Source: a bacterium | GTDB taxonomy: Bacteria > Patescibacteriota > Minisyncoccia > Phycocordibacterales > Zambryskibacteraceae | Assembly (NCBI GenBank): GCA_023266935.1 | Contig: JAHFOF010000002.1 | Span: 4,469 to 68,468 of the forward strand | Reading direction: 5' to 3' | Length of the DNA: 64,000 bases | Shown here: in pieces, positions 46,506 through 57,338 of the stretch | Numbering within the stretch: position 1 is the stretch's first letter | Layout: each line of letters opens with the position of its first letter | The notes under the pieces: generated by a model | Told to the model about the DNA's origin: nothing | Database searches by the model: none | The model's input: only the letters and a program-made list of their open reading frames with translations | Translations under genes and position numbers: made by a program

Positions 46506-47360
46506 TTATATTCGATTAAAAACTTTCAGTTTGGCCCGAACAATTTTTTTCATTTCTTCTACACCTTCGGCCATGAATTTATAAGGAGCTATTTCATCCG
46601 AACTCATGATACCCTTCTCGATTCCCTTTTTATAAGCCAAACGAAGTTCAGTATTTATATGAACCACACTGATACCCGCTTCTATCGCCTTTCTTACTTC
46701 TTCATCAGTATTTCCAGAAGCCCCGTGGAGAACTAAAGGCACTCCGACTGCTTTATGAATTTTTTTGATTAAAGGGATGTTTAATTTTGGTTCACCGGTT
46801 CGAATCAAACCATGCACATTTCCCACCGACGGAGCGAAGAGATCAACCATCGTTTCCTCTACAAACTTTTGAGCATCTTCTGGATGAGTTTGAGTAGCTG
46901 GAGAAACTCCATCAGGAATTTCATCTCGAAGAGTTGAACCAGAACCAATAAAGCCGAGCTCTCCTTCTACAAGAATGTTTGGATTTTTTTCTTTGGCATA
47001 TTTAACAACCTCTATGGTCATCATTTCATTTTCAAAAAATGGTTTCTCTGCTCCATCTATGATGACTGAATCAAAATTATTATTTATGGCTTCTTTAGAC
47101 GCTTCCACCGAATAAGTGTGGTCTGCATTCAGAAAAACGGGCTGACCTTTTTCTTTTTCTACTTGAACCAAAGCTCTGATTTCTGCCACACCCAAAAAAC
47201 TTCGTTCATTCTCCGAGACCCCAATAATTACTGGTACCCCGAGTTCTTTGGCTGACTCCACTACTGCCTTGAATCCTTCTGAATCAGAAACATTAAAATG
47301 CCCTATAGCAATTTTCTTTTCTTCAGCTTCTTTGATGTATTCGAGTAGGGATTTCATCAT
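46506..47360 (-). CDS. fba: Class II fructose-bisphosphate aldolase
   Basis: ADH, VEGELG, GNVHG, LVLHGASG and INTE motifs; true start MMKSLL. Confidence 0.92.
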   Translation of the reverse strand: MMKSLLEYIKEAEEKKIAIGHFNVSDSEGFKAVVESAKELGVPVIIGVSENERSFLGVAEIRALVQVEKEKGQPVFLNADHTYSVEASKEAINNNFDSVIIDGAEKPFFENEMMTIEVVKYAKEKNPNILVEGELGFIGSGSTLRDEIPDGVSPATQTHPEDAQKFVEETMVDLFAPSVGNVHGLIRTGEPKLNIPLIKKIHKAVGVPLVLHGASGNTDEEVRKAIEAGISVVHINTELRLAYKKGIEKGIMSSDEIAPYKFMAEGVEEMKKIVRAKLKVFNRI

Positions 47361-47379: not shown

Positions 47380-47406
47380 AAAAAACCCACCATTGCTGGT
47401 GGGGTT
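47380..47406 (-). terminator. Intrinsic terminator closing the tas/array transcript
   Basis: Minus strand CCCACCA-GCAA-TGGTGGG-TTTTTT, directly after the last array unit. Confidence 0.85.
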
Positions 47407-47689
47407 GTCTGACAATTACTGGCTCGTTCCAAAGAACAGGCAGTTCTACGTCAGACAATTCTCGACAACTGTGCTTTCGTCTTGAAAGACAAAGAAATAC
47501 ACGTCGAGAAATTTTGCGGACAAAAGATAGAACGCTCTGTGAACAACAACAGCGTCGTCCGCATTATACAAAGAACTTTAGAGACACACTACTCCTCGTT
47601 CCTAAGAACAGTTGGCGAGTCGTCTCTCATAAACATTTGGTAAGGCAATTCTAGCATCGTCTGAAAGACACAACCGCCTACGCCTTACC
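47405..47689 (-). ncRNA. Stem-loop TIGR-like guide-RNA array, 5 units downstream of the tas gene
   Basis: Units 47405-47458, 47459-47510, 47515-47563, 47580-47627 and 47639-47689. On the plus strand each is outer arm-A-N9-(T/A)C-inner hairpin-A-N9-(T/A)C-complementary outer arm. Confidence 0.88.
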
Positions 47690-47694
47690 TTTTT

Positions 47695-48789
47695 CTACGC
47701 GGCTAGCTTGGCTCGCTTTTCGGCGGAACCTCCTTCGAGGTCCCACCATTCTCCGTAGAGCCATTCGGCGAACTTGGTAATCGTCCGCCAGAGTGCCATC
47801 TTGTGGATGTGGCCGTCGGTGTAGCGCTTCTTGCCACCGACTACGACCACTTCTGGATGCTTCTCGCGGAGTTTCACCTTGTACTCGCGGAGCTTCTTGC
47901 CCCAAACCGAGTCAGCCCGACGATTCATCTGGTCTCCGAAGAGATACATGGCCTGCCGACCAGCCGGGTTCCAGTTTGAAGTCTGGTTGCGACGACGACG
48001 AGCGAATGTCCCATCGGTGAGCACGTGCACTCCGAGGAAAGCCTTGAACTTGGGCTTGGTCTCGAAGCGACGGATGTCGCCGACGGCACTAATGATGCCG
48101 GCGGCAATCGATGATCCACATCCTTCAACCTTGCCGAAGATGTCGGTGAACACATCGAGCGCCTTGAGAGCTTTGGCCAAATCCTTGTCTCGAGCACTTT
48201 CTTCTGCTTCGAGATTCTGGAGGATGACCGAGGAAGCCTTCTCCTTATCGAAGAGGTCCTCGATCTGGCCTTCCGGATACGGGCCTTCGGGTCGACGGAA
48301 AGTCTTCCCAATAAAGCTCGTCCGGAGACGCTGTTCGCACGCGATGCGAGCCTTCATGGCTTCGATTCGCGCTCGATAGCACTCGGACACTTCGATGAGC
48401 GCCCTGTCACGAGCCCGCACTTCGTAGAAAAGTTCGGGCTTGGTGAAGATGAGTCGAGCGAGGAGCGTCGAATCTCCGTCCTTCTCCGCGTCACCACGCT
48501 CCGCCTTCAAGCGGTACGCAGGAATGCGGAAAACCTTTGCCCCCAAACCCTCCCCTGTGCGGGAAAGGGCGTAGGCCAAGCTGTCACCGGATCCTCCGAG
48601 AACCATCGCGATGCGATCGTTCTCCATGAGTCCGGTGCGGACGAATTCGAGTTCATCAGCCTCGGTCTTCTGGACCAAGACCTTAAACTCATCGCCATGA
48701 CGAATCGAAACTTCCGTCGGACGTGCCTCGCCTTCCGCGGTCTGCTTGACCCGGTGGCGAATGCCGATCACTCTACCTGTAGAAATCAA
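47695..48789 (-). CDS. Tas-like protein: degenerate RuvC-like domain + coiled coil + IS110/Nop-type RNA-binding domain
   Basis: GKVEGCGSSIAAGIISAVGDIRRF..KFKAFLGV and RRRRNQTSNWN C-terminal region; no IS110 SG catalytic serine; TTG start with GAAGGAG SD; GC-rich. Confidence 0.8.
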   Translation of the reverse strand: MISTGRVIGIRHRVKQTAEGEARPTEVSIRHGDEFKVLVQKTEADELEFVRTGLMENDRIAMVLGGSGDSLAYALSRTGEGLGAKVFRIPAYRLKAERGDAEKDGDSTLLARLIFTKPELFYEVRARDRALIEVSECYRARIEAMKARIACEQRLRTSFIGKTFRRPEGPYPEGQIEDLFDKEKASSVILQNLEAEESARDKDLAKALKALDVFTDIFGKVEGCGSSIAAGIISAVGDIRRFETKPKFKAFLGVHVLTDGTFARRRRNQTSNWNPAGRQAMYLFGDQMNRRADSVWGKKLREYKVKLREKHPEVVVVGGKKRYTDGHIHKMALWRTITKFAEWLYGEWWDLEGGSAEKRAKLAA

Positions 48790-48828
48790 AGTACTCTCCT
48801 TCTCGTCCGTTCAGGACATTGGGGGTTA

Positions 48829-48926
48829 GGGACAACAATTCAAACGTCTATTTAAGACATCAAGTAAATCGTCCCCGTGCTGTACATAGTACGTATCGTT
48901 ATTTGACACAGTGTTCATCGTACAGC
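48829..48926 (-). ncRNA. Stem-loop TIGR-like array, 2 units upstream of the tas gene
   Basis: Units 48829-48875 (GGGAC/GTCCC) and 48879-48926 (GCTGTAC/GTACAGC) with the same A-N9-(T/A)C spacing. Confidence 0.85.
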
Positions 48927-48932
48927 CAGAAA

Positions 48933-48960
48933 ACTATACTCAAATATAAAGAATTGTCAA
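48933..48960 (-). promoter_or_regulatory. Sigma70-type promoter for the array-tas-array transcript
   Basis: TTGACA(48955-60)-16 bp-TATAGT(48933-38); predicted TSS about 48926, the first base of the first unit. Confidence 0.75.
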
Positions 48961-49013
48961 ATAAATTTATAAAAGAAAAAACACATCGACTGACTATGCT
49001 ACAATATTTATAA

Positions 49014-49994
49014 ATGTACGATTTAATTTCTATTGGTGACACTGTCATAGATTGTTTTATAAAACTTAAAGAAGCGGAAGTTTCGGGAACACCAGACAGC
49101 CCGGATTATAAAATTTGCCTACCCTTCGCAGAAAAAATACCTTATGAGAGCGTGAAGGTTGTGCCTGCAGTAGGAAATTCAGCCAATGCTTCTGTTTCTG
49201 CTTCTAAACTTGGATTAAAGACTGGTTTGGTGACCAACATCGGGGATGATCAGAATGGTCAAGACTGTTTGGATACTTTCACTAAAGATGGAGTGGCCAA
49301 AGATTTTATAAAAGTGAACGTGGGGAAAAAAACTAACTATCATTATGTTTTGTGGTACAGCCCAGACAGAACAATTTTAGTAAAGCACGAAGATTTTGAA
49401 TACAATCTGCCGAACATCGGTGAACCCAAGTGGCTTTATCTTTCTTCGCTTGGAGAACAGACGGTTGAATATCATAAACAGATTTCAAATTATTTAATTT
49501 CTCATCCAAACATCAACCTCGCCTTTCAACCAGGAACATTTCAAATAAATTTTGGAGTTGAGAACCTTAAAGATATCTATGCTCGAACAAAAATATTTTT
49601 TTGCAATGTAGAAGAAGCTGGGAGGGTGCTCGGGATAACTACCCTCGGCGTTCCTGAACTTCTTAAACGCATTCACGCCCTCGGTCCACAAATTGTGGTG
49701 ATTACCGATGGGCCAAAAGGAGCCTATGCCTACGACGGAGCACAAACCCTGTTTGCCCCCGGATTCCCAGAACACGAACCTCCATTCGAACGTACCGGAG
49801 CTGGAGATGCTTTCGCCTCAACTACTACTTCGGCTTTAATCCTCGGCAAGGATTTACCCACCGCCCTTTCTTGGGGGGCAGTAAATAGTATGAATGTCTG
49901 TAGATTCATCGGCGCCCAAGAAGGACTGCTCACTCACGAACAAATCGAAGCCGAACTTTCCAAAAATCCAACTTATAAAGTTTCTGCTATCTGA
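49014..49994 (+). CDS. PfkB-family carbohydrate kinase
   Basis: GNSANAS, VITDGPKGA and ERTGAGDAF motifs. Confidence 0.92.
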   Translation: MYDLISIGDTVIDCFIKLKEAEVSGTPDSPDYKICLPFAEKIPYESVKVVPAVGNSANASVSASKLGLKTGLVTNIGDDQNGQDCLDTFTKDGVAKDFIKVNVGKKTNYHYVLWYSPDRTILVKHEDFEYNLPNIGEPKWLYLSSLGEQTVEYHKQISNYLISHPNINLAFQPGTFQINFGVENLKDIYARTKIFFCNVEEAGRVLGITTLGVPELLKRIHALGPQIVVITDGPKGAYAYDGAQTLFAPGFPEHEPPFERTGAGDAFASTTTSALILGKDLPTALSWGAVNSMNVCRFIGAQEGLLTHEQIEAELSKNPTYKVSAI

Positions 49995-49998
49995 TTAT

Positions 49999-52900
49999 CT
50001 ATCTTCCTTGATTTAGATATTCTTGGAATGATTTTATGAGCGCGTCTAAACTTGCAACAACTGATGCAAGATTAGATTCTTGTTGATTCATAATTACAGC
50101 TGGTCCATGAACCGAACCTCCTCCGGTTGGCGCAGAGGTAGGACAGGCAGAAGGTGCTACTGCTGATACTGTTTGCGATGGGCTTGATTCACCAACTGAA
50201 TTCCTTGCGGTTACATAGTACGAATATGTTGCGCCAGGAGTAAATCCACCGGATGCTGAGGTCACACCACTGTCTGAGTAGGATGTACCTGATATGGTTA
50301 CTTGCAAAGGCATACCTCCATAGAAAGCATTGTTTCCACCGTAAATCGAATAAGAAATTGCATTCGACACTGCACTCCACGAGAGGCTGATAGTGTGAGA
50401 ATCACATGAACCTGATGTTGCAGATAATCCTGTTGGGACTACTGGGACTGTAGCTGTCGGCTGGCTCACATTTATTGTGACATTTGCTGAGGCTGTCGTT
50501 CCATTTGTACCAGTACAAGTAACTGTGTATGTAGTGGTTTGATAGATTGGACCGACTGATTGACTGTTGTATATCTCCCCTGCACCATTATTGTATTGAG
50601 TTCCTATCCAAGGAGCTGAACACGAAGAAACATTGTATCCATGCCAATCTAACACTGATGAAGTTCCGGGCAATACATTACTTGAACCAAAGTTATAACT
50701 TGGATTAATTGCAACTGTAACTCGAGGCGAAGGAACGACTATCACAGGAGAAACAGTAACAGTGGTATTCACTGTAGTAGAAATCCCAGCACTGTTATAA
50801 CATGTGGCACTATAGGTAGACGTTTGGGTTGGGTATAAATCCTTAAACACCGGCCACATTAGAACTTCATTTGGCCACAAACAACGAGCCGTATCCGCAG
50901 AAGAATTTAATGTAATCCTAGTTGATTGTCCCGCGGTAATTGATGTTGGGTTTGCGGTCAGAGAAACGGTTGGAGCAGTTGAGTTAAGTAATGGAGAAAC
51001 AGTAACTGTTAAATTCTTCATTGCATATGGACCACTCGCCCCGTTATAACATGTGATGCCATAACCTGTAGAAGCAGTTGGACTGATAGTCACAGAACCA
51101 CTTGTGTTTGTTCCTGATGAAAGAATCCCAACATTACAGGTAGTTGCGTTTGTAGCAGACCAAGTAATTGTTGTTGATTGGCCGACTATTATAGAACTTG
51201 GTGTCGCTATAAATGATATTACCGGCGTTTGAACAACAGATGTTTGAACGGTTAAACTATCATTTGCTGATACACCAGCACTGTTGTAACAAGTCATTGT
51301 ATAGGATGTTGTCTGTGTTGGGTAAACAGTAGCAGTGCCAGAAGTCGTTGTGAGTGTTGTCCACGGAGCAGAACATCTGGTTGTATTTGTTGATGACCAA
51401 GAAATAACTGATGGTGATCCACTGGTAACGATTAATGGTCCGGGAGTAAATGACAGCTCCACAGTTGGTACCGAAGGACTTGAAGATGTTTTGTAAATCG
51501 TCAGACTCTTTGTGTCACTTGGATTAACATCGTATGAATTTCTATATCCTTTGAGTGTATAGGTTGACTGATTTGCCCCCGTTACATTTGACCAAGAAAC
51601 AAAGAACGGATTTACAATTATGTTTGCATAGCCTGAATCTGTTTGACGAGAGACACTATCTACGCCGTTTGTAGTCTGGATTAAATCAATATGGTTACAT
51701 CCATTGGCAATATAATTCAGATTAGCAATAGCTAATGCACTAGGATCAGAAACATTTAGAGTAATGCCTTGCATAGGACTCTGAGTATAGCTTGTCCCAT
51801 TTGCTGTAAATGAAGTGATATTGCAACTTCCGTTGTTCGCGGTCGTAGTTTGGGTTGTGCTGTTTTGAACAGTAACAGTTACACCATTGTTGGCTGACGG
51901 AGGAATGGAACCGTTTATACTGTCACCGTTATAACAAAAAACATAATATGGCATGGTGGCAGTTGGATATACCATTTGACTACCACTTGGACCAGAATTT
52001 CCCCTAACATCATTTGGGCCCAAGCATTTAGTAGCATTCGTTGACGTCCAATTAATGGTTGCTGATTGCCCTGCTGTAATTGATGTTGGGGTTGCCCAAA
52101 CATTGACAGTAGGAGTTGAGACTGTATTAGTTATGGTGGTTGTGTTAGTAGGAGTGCTTATTTTGGTCAAATAATCCTCTGCGCTCCATCCTTGAAAATT
52201 GCCCGGCCAACGAACCATCCACCAACGAGCGCCATTTTGACTACTCAAATCTGTTGTGACTGGACCCATAATCAAGGTGCCAATTGTTCCCGCCGGAAGT
52301 GTTTTGAGTAATCGTGCTGTTGCGCCTTGGGCTTCGCGCACATTTAAATTCTGTGAGGCCCTCACCGTGTCCCAAGGTTTAAGTGGAGAAACTGAGGCTG
52401 CATTTGGATCAAATGGCACAGACAAACTTGCAATAGCTCCGGTGACAGCTGCATAAGCACAATTGTTTACCAAAACTTCATCTACCCCGTCAGCTCCTAA
52501 CTTTGTATTTGTGTATTGTGTGTATGATCGAGCATCTGCAATTAATTTAACATACCCCGGAATTTCATATGATCGTGTTCCCATAACAAACATGGCATCG
52601 TTAGCTGAATCAATCCAAGGTTGAAGGAGTGGGCCAACCACGAAATAACTGACTAGCCCAATGACTATTTGTTTGTAATTAAGACTTATATGTACTTTTG
52701 ATATTAAGGTTCCGCTTTGATTGTCTTTTTGAATGGCTCGACACTCATCCTGAAGTCCGGCTACAGTAATTCCGGGATGTGTCCAAGTTGTATTATCGGC
52801 TTGAATCTTCTGACTCGCCCAAGTTTGAGTAGCAGGAATATAAACTATCTGATAAGCAGCAATCCTTCCTGAAGCAAGCCAAACGCTTACAGCCCGATTA

Positions 52901-53403
52901 TCACTCGATGTTGGTAAATTGGTCGCATTTATAAGAGACATATTGGCTCTATAAACAGAGCTGCCAATGCAACCCTCCTTATTACTTTCTTTATCTACTA
53001 ATCCACAGTTTTGATTATTACCAAGAACATCAACGCTTGAAATATCTAAGTGGGTCCAATCTGTCGCACCGGTCTTATCATCTGTTTTTTTCACCATCCA
53101 AGTCCTTGCATTTGGAGAATAAAGAACCTGCCAGGTTTTGTTGTAATTATGAACTGTATATACATCAGCCAAGCCATTTACATAATTCACCACCCCACCT
53201 TGACTACCAACAACCCCCGCAGGAGAACTGGGTGATCCACCAACCACATCACCGCCTGAATCTTGAGCCACAAGAGCCTGAATCTGGGCTTGTAACGATT
53301 GAATCTGAGCTTGAAGTTCAGCGATTGTCACTGCGCCTGCGGTGGGAGTAATGGCTGAAAAAACAAACACAAATAGAAAAGCGAACGATAGCAGTTTTTT
53401 CAT
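49999..53403 (-). CDS. Large secreted/surface protein (SH3-like domain, Thr/Ser-rich Ig-like repeats, Fn3)
   Basis: Signal peptide, IAELQAQIQSLQAQI, LNVR..WWMVRW..GWSAEDYL, repeated SITxGQS..WxS..C..Y..TC. Confidence 0.8.
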   Translation of the reverse strand: MKKLLSFAFLFVFVFSAITPTAGAVTIAELQAQIQSLQAQIQALVAQDSGGDVVGGSPSSPAGVVGSQGGVVNYVNGLADVYTVHNYNKTWQVLYSPNARTWMVKKTDDKTGATDWTHLDISSVDVLGNNQNCGLVDKESNKEGCIGSSVYRANMSLINATNLPTSSDNRAVSVWLASGRIAAYQIVYIPATQTWASQKIQADNTTWTHPGITVAGLQDECRAIQKDNQSGTLISKVHISLNYKQIVIGLVSYFVVGPLLQPWIDSANDAMFVMGTRSYEIPGYVKLIADARSYTQYTNTKLGADGVDEVLVNNCAYAAVTGAIASLSVPFDPNAASVSPLKPWDTVRASQNLNVREAQGATARLLKTLPAGTIGTLIMGPVTTDLSSQNGARWWMVRWPGNFQGWSAEDYLTKISTPTNTTTITNTVSTPTVNVWATPTSITAGQSATINWTSTNATKCLGPNDVRGNSGPSGSQMVYPTATMPYYVFCYNGDSINGSIPPSANNGVTVTVQNSTTQTTTANNGSCNITSFTANGTSYTQSPMQGITLNVSDPSALAIANLNYIANGCNHIDLIQTTNGVDSVSRQTDSGYANIIVNPFFVSWSNVTGANQSTYTLKGYRNSYDVNPSDTKSLTIYKTSSSPSVPTVELSFTPGPLIVTSGSPSVISWSSTNTTRCSAPWTTLTTTSGTATVYPTQTTSYTMTCYNSAGVSANDSLTVQTSVVQTPVISFIATPSSIIVGQSTTITWSATNATTCNVGILSSGTNTSGSVTISPTASTGYGITCYNGASGPYAMKNLTVTVSPLLNSTAPTVSLTANPTSITAGQSTRITLNSSADTARCLWPNEVLMWPVFKDLYPTQTSTYSATCYNSAGISTTVNTTVTVSPVIVVPSPRVTVAINPSYNFGSSNVLPGTSSVLDWHGYNVSSCSAPWIGTQYNNGAGEIYNSQSVGPIYQTTTYTVTCTGTNGTTASANVTINVSQPTATVPVVPTGLSATSGSCDSHTISLSWSAVSNAISYSIYGGNNAFYGGMPLQVTISGTSYSDSGVTSASGGFTPGATYSYYVTARNSVGESSPSQTVSAVAPSACPTSAPTGGGSVHGPAVIMNQQESNLASVVASLDALIKSFQEYLNQGR

Positions 53404-53474
53404 TACTTTTGGATTATTTTTTTAACAGTATTAATTATAACTCTAAAATATTTATACGCATATAATCACCTTAT

Positions 53475-56400
53475 CTAGGGGTTAATATAACTCTGAAGGG
53501 ATTGAAACATTATATTCAGACCGGCCATAATTGAAGCCAGATTGGTATTATTGATAAAAGTAACTGGGTTTGAAACTGTTATGCCGATCCCCGTGCCAGC
53601 ATCATTTCCAGCTTGATCCCAAACTGTTACCTGAACACTATGTGGACCATTAGAAACTGTAGTTGAATTCCAAGACATACTAAAGGGAGCAGATTGTATC
53701 GGTGATCCTAAATTTACACCGTCTACTGCGAACTGGACTCTGGCTATCCCAACATTGTCTGTGGCGTTCGCTGAAATATTTACTAAACCAGAAACCGTTG
53801 CACCTTCTTGTGGTGATGTGATTGAGACATTTGGATGTATCGTGTCGGCTCCTTGAGCCACAACATTCACAATTGTACTATTGCCTGCATTTATTCCGTT
53901 GCCAGCACAACTAATATTATAAGTTGTTGTTTGACTTAACGGCCCCACAGTTTCTGTTCCTGATGTAGATTTGTTACCAGACCAACCGCCGTATGCTGAA
54001 CATGACGTAGTATCTGTTGAAGACCAGATGATATTTACTGATTGACCAGAGGCAATTGGATTCGCACTTGAAGAAATAGAAACCGTTGGATTGTTCGCAC
54101 AAGATGCGGGTGAAGAAATATTTACCGGATTAGAAACTGGAGAGATGTTGCTACCATTCACAGCCTTAACTCTATAATATAAATTAATATTCGGTGAACC
54201 CACATTGTCACTAAACGACGTTCCAACTATTCCTGTGCTTCCAGCAGGATTTCCAAATCCACTAGTCGCTAACGTACTCCTTTCGACGGTATACGAAGCT
54301 GCTCCTGATACAGAACCCCAAGACAAATTAATTTCTCCAGAATTACATGCACCAGCTGACGCAGTTAAACCCGTTGGAGCTACCAAGGCTGTGGCTGAAC
54401 CATTGGCCACAAAACAGCTATTTGAAGCAGTTATCCAAGAACCAAATGAGCAACCAGGATATGCAGATTTAGTGTGAACTTGAAGAATAGAGCCAGTCTG
54501 GCCTGTCGGGCAAGAAATAATTTGTTGTTCTGAAAGTGGTTCAGCACACGAAGACACTGAAAGTGGCGTGGAATTATTTGTGCTGTTTGAAGCACATGTG
54601 TTAGATACTGTTGCCCAAGAACCAAATAAACAACCCAAACTGGATGACTTGGTTCTAACCTGAACAATAGATCCTGTTTGACCAGATGGGCAAACTACAG
54701 TTTGTGTTTCAGAAAGTGGGGATGGACAAGAGGCATCTGCAGCACTTGCACATGTGTTCGAAGTGGTTGTCCAAGACCCAAATGTACAACTTGGATAAGC
54801 TGATTTTGTGTGAGTTTGAGTGATGTGTCCGGTTTGGCCAGATGGACAAGCTATGGTCTGAGTCTCAGCAAGAGGAAATGTGCACGTTGTGTTTGTTGTT
54901 GTCGTGGTTGGAGTTACCACACAAGTGTTCGAGGTTGTTGTCCAAGATCCAAATGTACAACTTGGATAAGCTGATTTTGTGTGAGTTTGAATGATATGTC
55001 CTGTTTGGCCAGATGGACAAGCTACTGTTTGTGTTTCGGAAAGCGGAGATTGGCAAACAGTATTAGCTGAATCAGCAAAAAACAAAACAGATATCGTACA
55101 CTCACCCATAATAGCGCCAGTGGTATAAGTCGAACCAGAAAGTGTCCCCTCGCAACCCTTGACCGAAACAACATGCTGTCCAATATTTGAAGAAATAGTG
55201 AAAATGGCCTTGCTACCAGATATTATCAATTGAGAAGTCGGTGAAATAGTTCCACCTGGTCCAACATTTGTTGAAACAACAAATGAACAAAGTGAAGAAA
55301 CTTTTCCTGTGGTAGAAACAGCAGGAGAAACGCTTGTATCGTTCAGGGCTTTCAATGTATACGAATGAGTACTACTAAAAGCAAGATTTGTATCAGAGAA
55401 AGCCAGAGCTGGACCTTCATAGACCAACGCTCCATCTCTATAAACTTGGTAGCTTGTGGCTCCATCCACTGCATTCCAAGAAAGGTTTACCCAATTATTA
55501 CTACAATAGCTCGGCGAAGCCACAAAACCTGTTGGGGGAATATTGGTTAAATAAACTTTTTTCTGAACTACACTCTCGACAGCAACATTCATTGGTACTG
55601 TATTAGAAAGTACGCTTCCATATTGTGACGCAAATCCAACCAAATATGATCCTGGATCTATATTTGATTTAAGGATCGCATTAATAGTGGTTATGCCCTC
55701 TGAATCATTACTAGCAGAAACTGTGGTATACCATTCTCCCGCCGCCCCAATTCCAGTAAAAAGCTCAAGTCTGGCACCCCCGGGAACAGAATAATTTAAA
55801 TCTGTCCTAACTCTTGTTTTAATAGTGAACTTACCTCCAACCGAAACAGGATTGGGTGTAATAGAAATCACTTCATCGGGCACATCAGCATTTGTGGTTG
55901 AGTCATCTGAAGAAACTACCGTTAGCGGGAGAGTGTTGGAGACTAAAACAGGGGCAGAGGAACCATTATATTGACCATAACCAACTCTATAGATTCCAGG
56001 TGGAACTTCTGTTGTATTCAAATCCGCAACAATAGTGGTTATATTGTTCGAGTCAGTATTGGAGGAAACTGTTTTATACCATATTTCATGAGGACGATCG
56101 TTCGTATAAAGCGTCAGATAGGTTAAACCATAAGATTGATTAGATGATTCAGGTACGACTTTTGTTTTTATAATAAATCTTCCACCAACCTTGATTGGAT
56201 TCGGGCTAAGAGAGATAATATCTGACAAAACTCTTTTTTCTGGTTCAGTAGTTTTTTGAGTACTTGTCTCAGAATTTGACTTGGGTTCGCCAGAAGATAC
56301 AGCGGTTGTATCATTATTCTTAAACACATTTGGCACAACTGAAGACACTAGATTCGACACAAACCCAGAAACTGTATCCATGAGTGAATTAAGTTTTGAT

Positions 56401-57338
56401 TTTGGAATAACATGCACAGATAGATTGCCCTCAACACCTCCCCCTTTAATAGCAATAGTCACATCACCGACAGAATTTGCTTTTATGGTTGGACCAGCAG
56501 TAATTGAAGCGATAGATGGATCAGGATTTCTAGCATTCATAGGGGGTTGGGGAGACATTTTTTGGTCAAATTGGTCAAGAACGACCACAGAGATTACCTG
56601 AGAGTCACCGACTTTCAATGTAATAGAACTCGGATATATTTTAATATCAAACGCTATTGGTATGTTTATTGCCACTTTTTGAGTATCGCCTTTTAAAGAA
56701 GCGCACCAATCAATCTCTCCATCATTTTTATAAAATCTTTTGGTATTTTTTTTTGTATCTGGGTTATAGTCTACCGCCGATGAATAGCTGTTTAAGCATT
56801 GCCAAAAAACAACACTCGTCTGATGTTCGCCGTTTGATCGATCTTTATCTATATGTATATCGCATTCATCTAATCGGCACATTGAATCTGATCCTTTATA
56901 TGTATAGCTGCCATCCTGCCCCATGTTGTCTACAGAACAACTATTTTTATAAGAGACTTCATCTCCACCCTTATTAACACATGAAAAACTAAGATCAAGG
57001 CTGGGGCATAGACCATCCTTGCGACTCTCTAATTTTGATTTTATGCGGGCAATCGCAGAATCCATTTTTAATTTACAGTCCTTAGACAGATTCTCGTATG
57101 ATGGATTGTCACTTTGATTCTGGCTGGCTGTAGTCGAAGTTTCTCCTCCTCCACTGCCTCCAGTATTATTCAATTTACACAATGATGGATCGGCAATGCA
57201 TGGATCTTCGTTAGAAACCTCCACTGGCAATGCTGGAGCTTGGAGTTCGGGGATTAACATCACACTCGCTTTGACTTCAATTTGATATGTAAAGAAAGAG
57301 GTAACCAGCAGAAGAAAGACTATTAGAGACTTTTTCAT
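53475..57338 (-). CDS. Large secreted/surface protein (Ig-like, Fn3, Cys-rich repeats, C-terminal bacterial Ig-like domain)
   Basis: Signal peptide, Fn3 motifs, four CxxPLxExQxxxCPxGQTG repeats, ATDNVGIARVQF. Confidence 0.8.
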   Translation of the reverse strand: MKKSLIVFLLLVTSFFTYQIEVKASVMLIPELQAPALPVEVSNEDPCIADPSLCKLNNTGGSGGGETSTTASQNQSDNPSYENLSKDCKLKMDSAIARIKSKLESRKDGLCPSLDLSFSCVNKGGDEVSYKNSCSVDNMGQDGSYTYKGSDSMCRLDECDIHIDKDRSNGEHQTSVVFWQCLNSYSSAVDYNPDTKKNTKRFYKNDGEIDWCASLKGDTQKVAINIPIAFDIKIYPSSITLKVGDSQVISVVVLDQFDQKMSPQPPMNARNPDPSIASITAGPTIKANSVGDVTIAIKGGGVEGNLSVHVIPKSKLNSLMDTVSGFVSNLVSSVVPNVFKNNDTTAVSSGEPKSNSETSTQKTTEPEKRVLSDIISLSPNPIKVGGRFIIKTKVVPESSNQSYGLTYLTLYTNDRPHEIWYKTVSSNTDSNNITTIVADLNTTEVPPGIYRVGYGQYNGSSAPVLVSNTLPLTVVSSDDSTTNADVPDEVISITPNPVSVGGKFTIKTRVRTDLNYSVPGGARLELFTGIGAAGEWYTTVSASNDSEGITTINAILKSNIDPGSYLVGFASQYGSVLSNTVPMNVAVESVVQKKVYLTNIPPTGFVASPSYCSNNWVNLSWNAVDGATSYQVYRDGALVYEGPALAFSDTNLAFSSTHSYTLKALNDTSVSPAVSTTGKVSSLCSFVVSTNVGPGGTISPTSQLIISGSKAIFTISSNIGQHVVSVKGCEGTLSGSTYTTGAIMGECTISVLFFADSANTVCQSPLSETQTVACPSGQTGHIIQTHTKSAYPSCTFGSWTTTSNTCVVTPTTTTTNTTCTFPLAETQTIACPSGQTGHITQTHTKSAYPSCTFGSWTTTSNTCASAADASCPSPLSETQTVVCPSGQTGSIVQVRTKSSSLGCLFGSWATVSNTCASNSTNNSTPLSVSSCAEPLSEQQIISCPTGQTGSILQVHTKSAYPGCSFGSWITASNSCFVANGSATALVAPTGLTASAGACNSGEINLSWGSVSGAASYTVERSTLATSGFGNPAGSTGIVGTSFSDNVGSPNINLYYRVKAVNGSNISPVSNPVNISSPASCANNPTVSISSSANPIASGQSVNIIWSSTDTTSCSAYGGWSGNKSTSGTETVGPLSQTTTYNISCAGNGINAGNSTIVNVVAQGADTIHPNVSITSPQEGATVSGLVNISANATDNVGIARVQFAVDGVNLGSPIQSAPFSMSWNSTTVSNGPHSVQVTVWDQAGNDAGTGIGITVSNPVTFINNTNLASIMAGLNIMFQSLQSYINP
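54417..55055 (-). repeat. Four intragenic repeats, each encoding an approximately 45-aa 4-Cys module
   Basis: Two copies are near-identical at DNA level (e.g. CCAAATGTACAACTTGGATAAGCTGATTTTGTGTGAGTTTGA). Confidence 0.85.

Follow-up and report, generated by a model that had tools for sequence, protein, structure and literature searches.

A likely nuclease-dead stem-loop TIGR-TasR locus with seven tigRNA units in a CPR bacterium

Organization of the cassette and its array

The window, i.e., the whole stretch of 64,000 nt of DNA that was analyzed, carries between the divergent genes fba (46506-47357) and pfkB (49014-49994) a cassette in which a gene coding for a 364-aa TasR is accompanied by two array units upstream and five downstream, all on the same strand as tas (Table 1). 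An earlier note on this DNA had described five outer arm pairs with five inner hairpins, and all of these were found where it had placed them; five units at 47405-47689 and two more at 48829-48926 make up the seven units of its count. A motif-free nested-stem scan (outer stem ≥ 5 bp, inner stem 4 bp, 12 nt between them on either side) detected five distinct units in 285 nt as compared to a mean of 0.03 and a maximum of 2 in 2000 dinucleotide shuffles. Shuffled controls had been named in the earlier note as the refuting test for selection on the fold, and with this outcome the claim stands. In the rest of the 64-kb window a loose nested-stem scan gave scattered single matches but never a cluster, and the whole 544-kb assembly, when scanned with a stricter motif, yielded one isolated match besides the seven units. 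Moreover, folding z-scores of the seven units as minus-strand RNA ranged from -1.6 to -5.7.

All seven units read on the minus strand in the order stem, CGW, 9 nt, UG, hairpin, CGW, 9 nt, UG, stem. The motifs C-G-W (box C) and U-G (box D) are present in all 14 half-units, and for the third position of box C to be A or T in all 14 cases, base composition gives a probability of about 0.0003-0.0007. Since the motifs hold in 14/14 half-units, the units are conserved in their fold plus five motif bases per half rather than in the fold alone; hence, the view that they are conserved by structure and not by sequence was right as to the fold and overstated as to the sequence. Similarly, the fixed 9-nt spacing that had been claimed is correct for the spacer, while from stem to stem there are 12 nt on either side, made up of two nucleotides of box C, the 9-nt spacer and the U of box D. 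The third inner stem indeed pairs fully on the minus strand only, and the inner stem of the unit at 48879 is weak, as had been said: an inner-loop hairpin is present in 6/7 units, and unit 1 has just two pairs plus a mismatch. The outer stems had also been called fully covarying. Their pairing is perfect, but this describes old paralogous stems and not counted compensatory changes, the sole orthologous compensatory change seen by eye being in the first upstream stem (GCTGTA/TACAGC here and GCTGCA/TGCAGC in the related locus L009). A MAFFT alignment of the seven units mis-registers unit 1, and pair counts were not drawn from it; for any covariation statistic, the choice of units by their pairing would be a source of bias.

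That the hairpins arose by chance, or are REP-like palindromes or a cluster of terminators without guide function, might be argued from the individual short stems that do arise by chance in the window and from the lack of an Rfam match at E ≤ 1. This explanation is refuted by the shuffles, which gave at most two units versus five observed, and by the conservation of units at tas loci, where the same architecture was found beside homologues in 75/85 loci; in addition, register and motifs are fixed in all 14 half-units. A search for identical direct repeats, the criterion used for CRISPR, found no repeat family among the units within the 20 largest repeat families listed.

Table 1. Features of the cassette, with positions in the window.
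Feature	Position	Strand	Basis and remarks
Whole cassette, approximate extent	47381..48990	-	Between divergent fba and pfkB
Sigma70-like promoter TTGACA-16-TATAGT	48933..48960	-	11/12 consensus; a few bases ahead of unit 1, just 5' of which transcription would start
tigRNA unit 1 (weak inner hairpin)	48879..48926	-	Nested-stem scan, motif reading, folding
tigRNA unit 2	48829..48875	-	Nested-stem scan, motif reading, folding
Lone box D-hairpin-box C half-unit, lacking outer stem and second box D; predicted Tas-binding operator	48803..48818	-	Leader scans
Shine-Dalgarno AAGGAG, in the spacer B place of a full unit	48796..48801	-	Sequence
tasR (364 aa), with a RuvC-like domain devoid of the catalytic acids, a coiled coil and a Nop domain	47695..48789	-	Pfam, profile, AlphaFold/Foldseek
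tigRNA unit 3	47639..47689	-	Nested-stem scan, motif reading, folding
tigRNA unit 4	47580..47627	-	Nested-stem scan, motif reading, folding
tigRNA unit 5	47515..47563	-	Nested-stem scan, motif reading, folding
tigRNA unit 6	47459..47510	-	Nested-stem scan, motif reading, folding
tigRNA unit 7 (spacer A 47439-47447, spacer B 47415-47423)	47405..47458	-	Nested-stem scan, motif reading, folding
Intrinsic-terminator-like hairpin and U-run, directly 3' of the last unit	47386..47403	-	Sequence

The earlier assignment of the array to a minus-strand RNA is supported by the promoter-like and terminator-like sites on this strand and by the unit orientation in 85 tas loci, a sample that includes the own locus and one duplicate (L002 = L009): units lie on the tas strand beside tas in 75 of them, with 491 sense versus 21 antisense units. 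Approximately one such promoter-like and two such terminator-like sites are expected by chance in the region, and for this reason it is their placement which counts as evidence. A plus-strand reading (CAN...CG) was rejected, as its non-canonical base falls in box D and it opposes promoter, gene and terminator. In one locus, L067, seven units were called on each strand, suggesting a second, oppositely oriented array nearby. In Tas homologues without a called unit (L011, L027, L030, L044, L047, L054, L061, L072, L078, and L079), boxes or spacer lengths may differ, or an array may be absent. RNA data provided a single 406-nt contig inside tas (48283-48687, one RNA run), leaving the array uncovered; given that such contigs show presence only, with neither strand nor level, and that DNA carry-over is possible, this is weak evidence of tas transcription. 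The CUU processing motif occurs in just one linker of the array, that between units 4 and 5. By eye, a GTTCTTT linker motif, longer than the published CUU, recurs in many arrays (e.g., window 47564-47579 on the minus strand, L009, L121) and is possibly a processing or transcription signal of the clade.

The cassette was laterally acquired. The gap between fba and pfkB is 16-121 bp in 18/20 genus relatives showing both genes (17/19 without the unpublished genome G018; a 21st relative lacked fba on its contig) and 1657 bp here. The GC content of tas is 58% compared to 40% for the genome, and the cassette was found in 5/61 related genomes searched, the own one included, where it is present in one copy. 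The inverted repeats at the ends of the cassette are more readily accounted for by the two divergent -10 boxes, which in empty sites overlap each other. At the same fba/pfkB site, two genus relatives carry unrelated inserts of 1.1-1.2 kb (L094:2457-3594 in G013 and L103:279-1498 in G009), one with an HD-domain gene (PF01966) and the other with two small ORFs that both have a terminator-like hairpin behind them and, in front, a promoter-like motif nearly identical between the two. Together with the TIGR cassette, three different cargoes are thus seen at this site, all on the fba strand, and the intergenic site is a possible insertion hotspot or cassette system. Beyond pfkB, at 49999-57338 on the minus strand, lie two long Ser/Thr-rich proteins with fn3 or Ig domains, probably surface proteins, the second of which has Cys-rich repeats of about 45 aa.

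The TasR protein and its relatives

The 364-aa protein matches PF02371 (E 1.4e-6). In a PDB sequence search the TIGR-TasR structure 9MTY was the sole match (E 7.6e-10), and a 30-sequence family profile scored 9MTY at 1.1e-20 versus 8.5e-4 for IS621. The AlphaFold model (pLDDT 88.4) likewise had TIGR-TasR 9MTY as its top Foldseek match (E 5.8e-12), ahead of IS621 and TasH. Among 726 homologues at E ≤ 1e-10 the named ones are mostly from CPR bacteria, and a single-query search of viral contigs detected no TasR homologue. In the model, helix 325-363 runs to a low-confidence C-terminus, so that a Y/H processing loop after the last helix appears to be absent.

At the four RuvC catalytic positions the protein has R11, V63, K103 and D106, only the last of the four acids being kept, and neither the R11 nor the V63 column has D or E among the five commonest residues in 78 proteins. 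Judged by these replacements, TasR of the window is likely nuclease-dead. This bears on a different reading, namely that the cassette is a self-mobile insertion sequence of the IS110 family and the hairpins its bridge or seek RNAs. The PF02371 match, the appearance of IS621 and ISCro4 in the profile and fold searches, the higher GC content, the site being empty in 18/20 genus relatives and the patchy presence in 5/61 genomes would all be in accordance with such a transposon. However, in the IS110 family the DEDD tetrad is catalytic and the serine of IS621 has a catalytic role, whereas here three of the four DEDD positions are occupied by R11, V63 and K103 and the position facing the IS621 serine is D. 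Moreover, the genome holds a single copy, the array consists of seven independent two-spacer units instead of one bridge RNA, and 9MTY scores far above IS621. An IS110-type transposon is therefore very improbable.

The locus is almost certainly a stem-loop TIGR-TasR locus of CPR bacteria. Faure et al. (2025; PMC12045711) described arrays of this kind, in which two spacers of 8-12 nt lie between the boxes C and D and the palindromic stems vary, and were the first to note a CPR clade whose RuvC is inactive. A catalog of 2,559 stem-loop arrays was presented by Xu et al. (2026; bioRxiv 10.64898/2026.09.09.750476), according to whom stems diverge even inside one array and CPR loops form a hairpin; the structure of a stem-loop TasA was described as well (Guan et al.; 10.64898/2026.08.11.744272). 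Motifs of the clade are found in Table S1 of Faure et al. (2025), where IGIRHR occurs at least 123 times and the representative contig of one row is L056; membership of the protein in the published Tas set is given at this level of the clade. The nested-stem architecture has thus already been described (Faure et al., 2025; Xu et al., 2026), and the locus itself adds one compact (364 aa) TasR with CGW/UG boxes. The earlier note had been correct regarding selection on the fold, the minus-strand RNA and the seven units, while the box C/D motifs and the identity of the array as the guide array of a TasR had escaped it.

With respect to function, CsTasR was reported not to cut DNA but to repress transcription of a reporter, and dead TasR, when reprogrammed, represses chromosomal genes (Xu et al., 2026). 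In our collection, locus L076, a Ca. Staskawiczbacteria record, encodes a 547-aa protein with R8 and V126, which map to R11 and V63 here; we infer that it is CsTasR or a near copy. The large RuvC insertion of the CsTasR type is absent from the protein of the window, which is compact like PateTasR and therefore does not belong to the CsTasR sub-type. Arrays with mostly CTA/CTT in place of CGA as box C were observed in L004, L021, L031, L034, L036, L048, L058, L059, and L069, spread over several separate branches of the Tas tree, and offer a natural set of variants from which the residues recognizing box C might be identified.

Spacer turnover and the leader half-unit

How new units arise with no shared repeat had been raised as a question, and it is a real one: spacer acquisition is called unknown in both TIGR papers (Faure et al., 2025; Xu et al., 2026). 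That units share no repeat is true of the window, in which all stems differ and duplicated scaffolds are absent, but not of its relatives, where stems often are shared repeats because units were duplicated in blocks. Such blocks, comprising two or three units and repeated together with their stems and linkers, were detected in many relatives (L013, L016, L018, L039, L057, L077, and L080). Unit gain or loss was not seen in the three runs compared.

The fate of spacers within such scaffolds was analyzed in 1,970 within-locus unit pairs, pairs inside one locus not being independent. In 20 pairs from 12 loci, in which both 22-nt flanks are identical at 40 or more of 44 positions, spacers match at 3.25/9 positions as compared to 2.4/9 in unrelated units. 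When selection was made on one flank, the far linker matched at 6.2/9 (n = 32) or 5.5/9 (n = 48) and the spacers at about 3/9. Between the window, L009 and L121 (71-76% protein identity) positional scaffolds are recognizable and spacers are unrelated. These observations suggest that arrays grow by block duplication and that in-place turnover is much faster in spacers than in stems and linkers; no mention of block duplication was found in the main texts of the TIGR papers searched.

Ordinary point mutation under diversifying selection, with flanks kept by gene conversion or purifying selection, might produce this pattern with no rewriting machinery, and we give this explanation an even chance. 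Orthologous units of L083 and L084 drift gradually, their spacers matching at 7-9/9, i.e., differing at just 0-2 of 9 positions, and therefore point mutation also acts on spacers; moreover, there is a mild excess of 5/9 matches, the pairs had been chosen for flank identity, and inner hairpins differ too in most of them. On the other hand, selection on one flank still leaves the far linker at 6.2/9 or 5.5/9 versus about 3/9 for spacers, intermediate spacers of 6-8/9 are rare, and pairs in L010 (4/9 and 9/9) and L073 (9/9 and 0/9) have one spacer and the inner hairpin identical while the other spacer is unrelated. A dedicated mechanism of spacer rewriting is put forward as a tentative idea, with a probability well short of even.

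In the leader of tasR a lone half-unit of box D, 4-bp hairpin and box C ends two bases before the Shine-Dalgarno sequence. The generality of this element was analyzed in 84 loci (the duplicate L002 left out), of which 78 had a usable start codon and 6 were dropped. A strict scan, in which the lone element had to be compact and to end 5-30 nt upstream of the start codon, found it in 33/78 loci, compared to 2.3 ± 1.4 (maximum 7) in shuffles, and a looser scan in 41/78, some false calls included. In a window of 60-5 nt, the element was present at tas in 37/78 loci, whereas the controls gave 5/55 after the last downstream unit, 6/64 before the first upstream unit, 19/320 for other ORFs in the loci and 19/463 for ORFs of the own genome. 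It was also seen by eye in L121 and L123 and, as a long-stemmed element in a loose scan, in L076, the likely CsTasR locus; by the strict scan it is absent in 45/78 loci, including the close relative L009. The loci with the element are scattered over a quick tree, on which they require 21 changes as compared to a mean of 25 after shuffling, and the count therefore does not reflect one clade. The leader box C agrees with the array box C in 27/32 loci (Fisher p 0.002), a figure resting partly on one four-member clade. L012, L013 and L016 have two tandem D-hairpin-C half-units about 8-11 nt apart, lacking an outer stem, within 70 nt before tas and just before the Shine-Dalgarno sequence, which could seat both protomers of a dimer.

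We propose that guide-free Tas would bind the lone D-hairpin-C in its own leader and cover the Shine-Dalgarno sequence, by which the amount of protein would be matched to the supply of guides. From the leader sequences, the chances that the half-unit is such a translational feedback site seem to us evenly balanced. It could instead be a decayed last array unit, or an RNA-processing or 5'-stabilizing hairpin with no role in translation, which is quite conceivable, if a little short of evens. In accordance with decay, the element is commoner with an upstream unit within 300 nt (30/56) than with none called (7/22), is missing from about half of the loci, and is replaced in several by a full unit ending 22-36 nt before the start. 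Contrarily, other array ends are largely devoid of it (5/55 and 6/64), a second box D is present in only 2/35 elements, and C at the first box C position in 11/35, which is near chance. Furthermore, among 13 paired triplet types of the leader stem TCC/GGA accounts for 18/37, whereas TCC forms the stem in 51/485 inner hairpins of full units, and the Shine-Dalgarno sequence begins at most 7 nt from box C, the place of spacer B, in 26/33. In the free-RNA fold the Shine-Dalgarno sequence is partly paired with downstream bases anyway.

A precedent for the proposed feedback is archaeal L7Ae (Daume et al., 2017; PMC5539422), which represses its own translation by binding to a copy of its RNA motif present in the leader of its mRNA. 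Both would be cases of a guide-RNP protein acting on its own 5' leader, but this is an analogy and not a membership: the motif bound by L7Ae is a k-turn, whereas the half-site bound here, box D-hairpin-box C, would be recognized by a Nop-domain protein. No mention of a leader half-unit or of autoregulation was found in the main texts of Faure et al., Xu et al. and Guan et al., and no paper on it was found by title or abstract; subscription papers and supplements may cover it.

Proposed mechanism, targets and comparison with known systems

What was determined for this locus itself is the anatomy of the units and their strand, the layout of the cassette, the protein family and the replacement of RuvC residues; the mechanism is modeled on characterized relatives. 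By this analogy, the seven tigRNA units and the likely dead TasR very probably form guide-loaded dimers that bind 18-bp DNA sites and block transcription. One minus-strand transcript would run from the promoter at 48960 to the terminator at 47403 and be cut into single-unit guide RNAs of about 50 nt. Each unit would be held by a TasR dimer, with one protomer per box C/D pair at the stem base. The stem sequence would be free because the protein reads the boxes and needs only a helix, which would answer the puzzle in the earlier note. The two spacers would pair with opposite strands, the 18-bp target being composed of spacer A and then the reverse complement of spacer B, and the bound site would be silenced and not cut.

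The targets are most likely foreign DNA, by exclusion only, since none was found in the own genome: seven guides in four geometries with gaps of 0-2 nt gave no site at 0-1 mismatch in the 543,574-bp, 94%-complete assembly, and neither did cross-unit spacer pairings. That the locus mainly regulates chromosomal genes of the host is improbable on these grounds, despite its location on a chromosomal contig among housekeeping genes and the repression of chromosomal genes by reprogrammed dead TasR (Xu et al., 2026); self matches with two mismatches do exist, but they occur in control geometries as well. Exact 18-mers in IMG/VR numbered 0, 7, 0, 0, 1, 1 and 1 for units 1-7. These ten loci, seven of which belong to the AT-rich unit 2, form a chance-like pattern and were not taken as real targets; two of them, with ORFs inspected by eye, show a glycosyltransferase-like gene (L111) and a terminase-like gene beside a portal-like gene (L112). 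A scan of 480 guides from the own locus and its relatives, requiring one exact 9-mer, against the own assembly (G000) and 550 kb of loci yielded no excess in the true geometry. The same spacer pair is present twice in one array in L013 (332, 607), L024 (3845, 4100) and L032 (1287, 1664), in the latter with a different inner hairpin; such pairs may represent strongly selected guides, well suited to target searches.

The locus alone is of modest value, being one compact, likely dead TasR in a family of thousands of catalogued arrays. The main value lies in the two family-level leads, the leader half-unit and the duplicated scaffolds, rather than in the architecture that had been flagged. Duplicated scaffolds with unrelated spacers direct the search for spacer acquisition to the inside of old units. 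The leader half-unit is a testable prediction of translational feedback, and would matter when tas is expressed from its native leader as a repression tool; as the likely CsTasR locus carries the element, the feedback is testable in an already reconstituted system. Both leads might be combined in one picture, in which specificity would come from block duplication followed by in-place rewriting of one 9-nt spacer at a time, and TasR would gauge guide supply through the half-guide operator over its own ribosome-binding site. This picture as a whole is speculative and rather unlikely. If true, the locus would be a library of repressors that titrates and diversifies itself, and its mode of adaptation would differ from that of CRISPR.

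Among known systems, the CPR stem-loop TIGR-TasR loci of CsTasR and PateTasR are the closest match: they share with the locus the two spacers between box C and box D, the variable palindromic outer stem, the hairpin in the loop, the units on both sides of tas, the replacement of the first two RuvC catalytic residues by R and V and, as judged from the model, the lack of a C-terminal loop past the last helix. Differences concern the protein, which in CsTasR has 547 aa with a long RuvC insertion and here 364 aa without it, and box C, which is CGA/CGU here and CUU in PateTasR. The dual-repeat system of TaTasR (9MTY) has the same protein fold, C-x-A/UG boxes and 9-nt spacers in the same register. 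Its tigRNA1 reads CCA-9nt-UG twice with a target of A + rc(B) (Faure et al., 2025, Table S3), and the CGW-9nt-UG repeated twice here corresponds to it. In contrast, the RuvC of TaTasR is active, its edge and loop repeats are fixed and its guide has 36 nt, whereas the locus has variable stems, units of 47-54 nt and replaced RuvC acids. With IS110/IS621 the protein shares the architecture of RuvC-like domain, coiled coil and Nop/Tnp domain, and RNA loops with two guide segments are common to both; however, here the catalytic acids are missing, an array of single-loop units replaces one target/donor RNA, and the cassette is present in a single copy. Finally, as in CRISPR arrays, guides would derive from one transcript beside the effector gene, but identical repeats are lacking, spacers are split into 9 + 9 nt and the cassette contains no adaptation gene. 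Moreover, while CRISPR arrays grow by polar addition, the relatives of the window suggest turnover inside old scaffolds.
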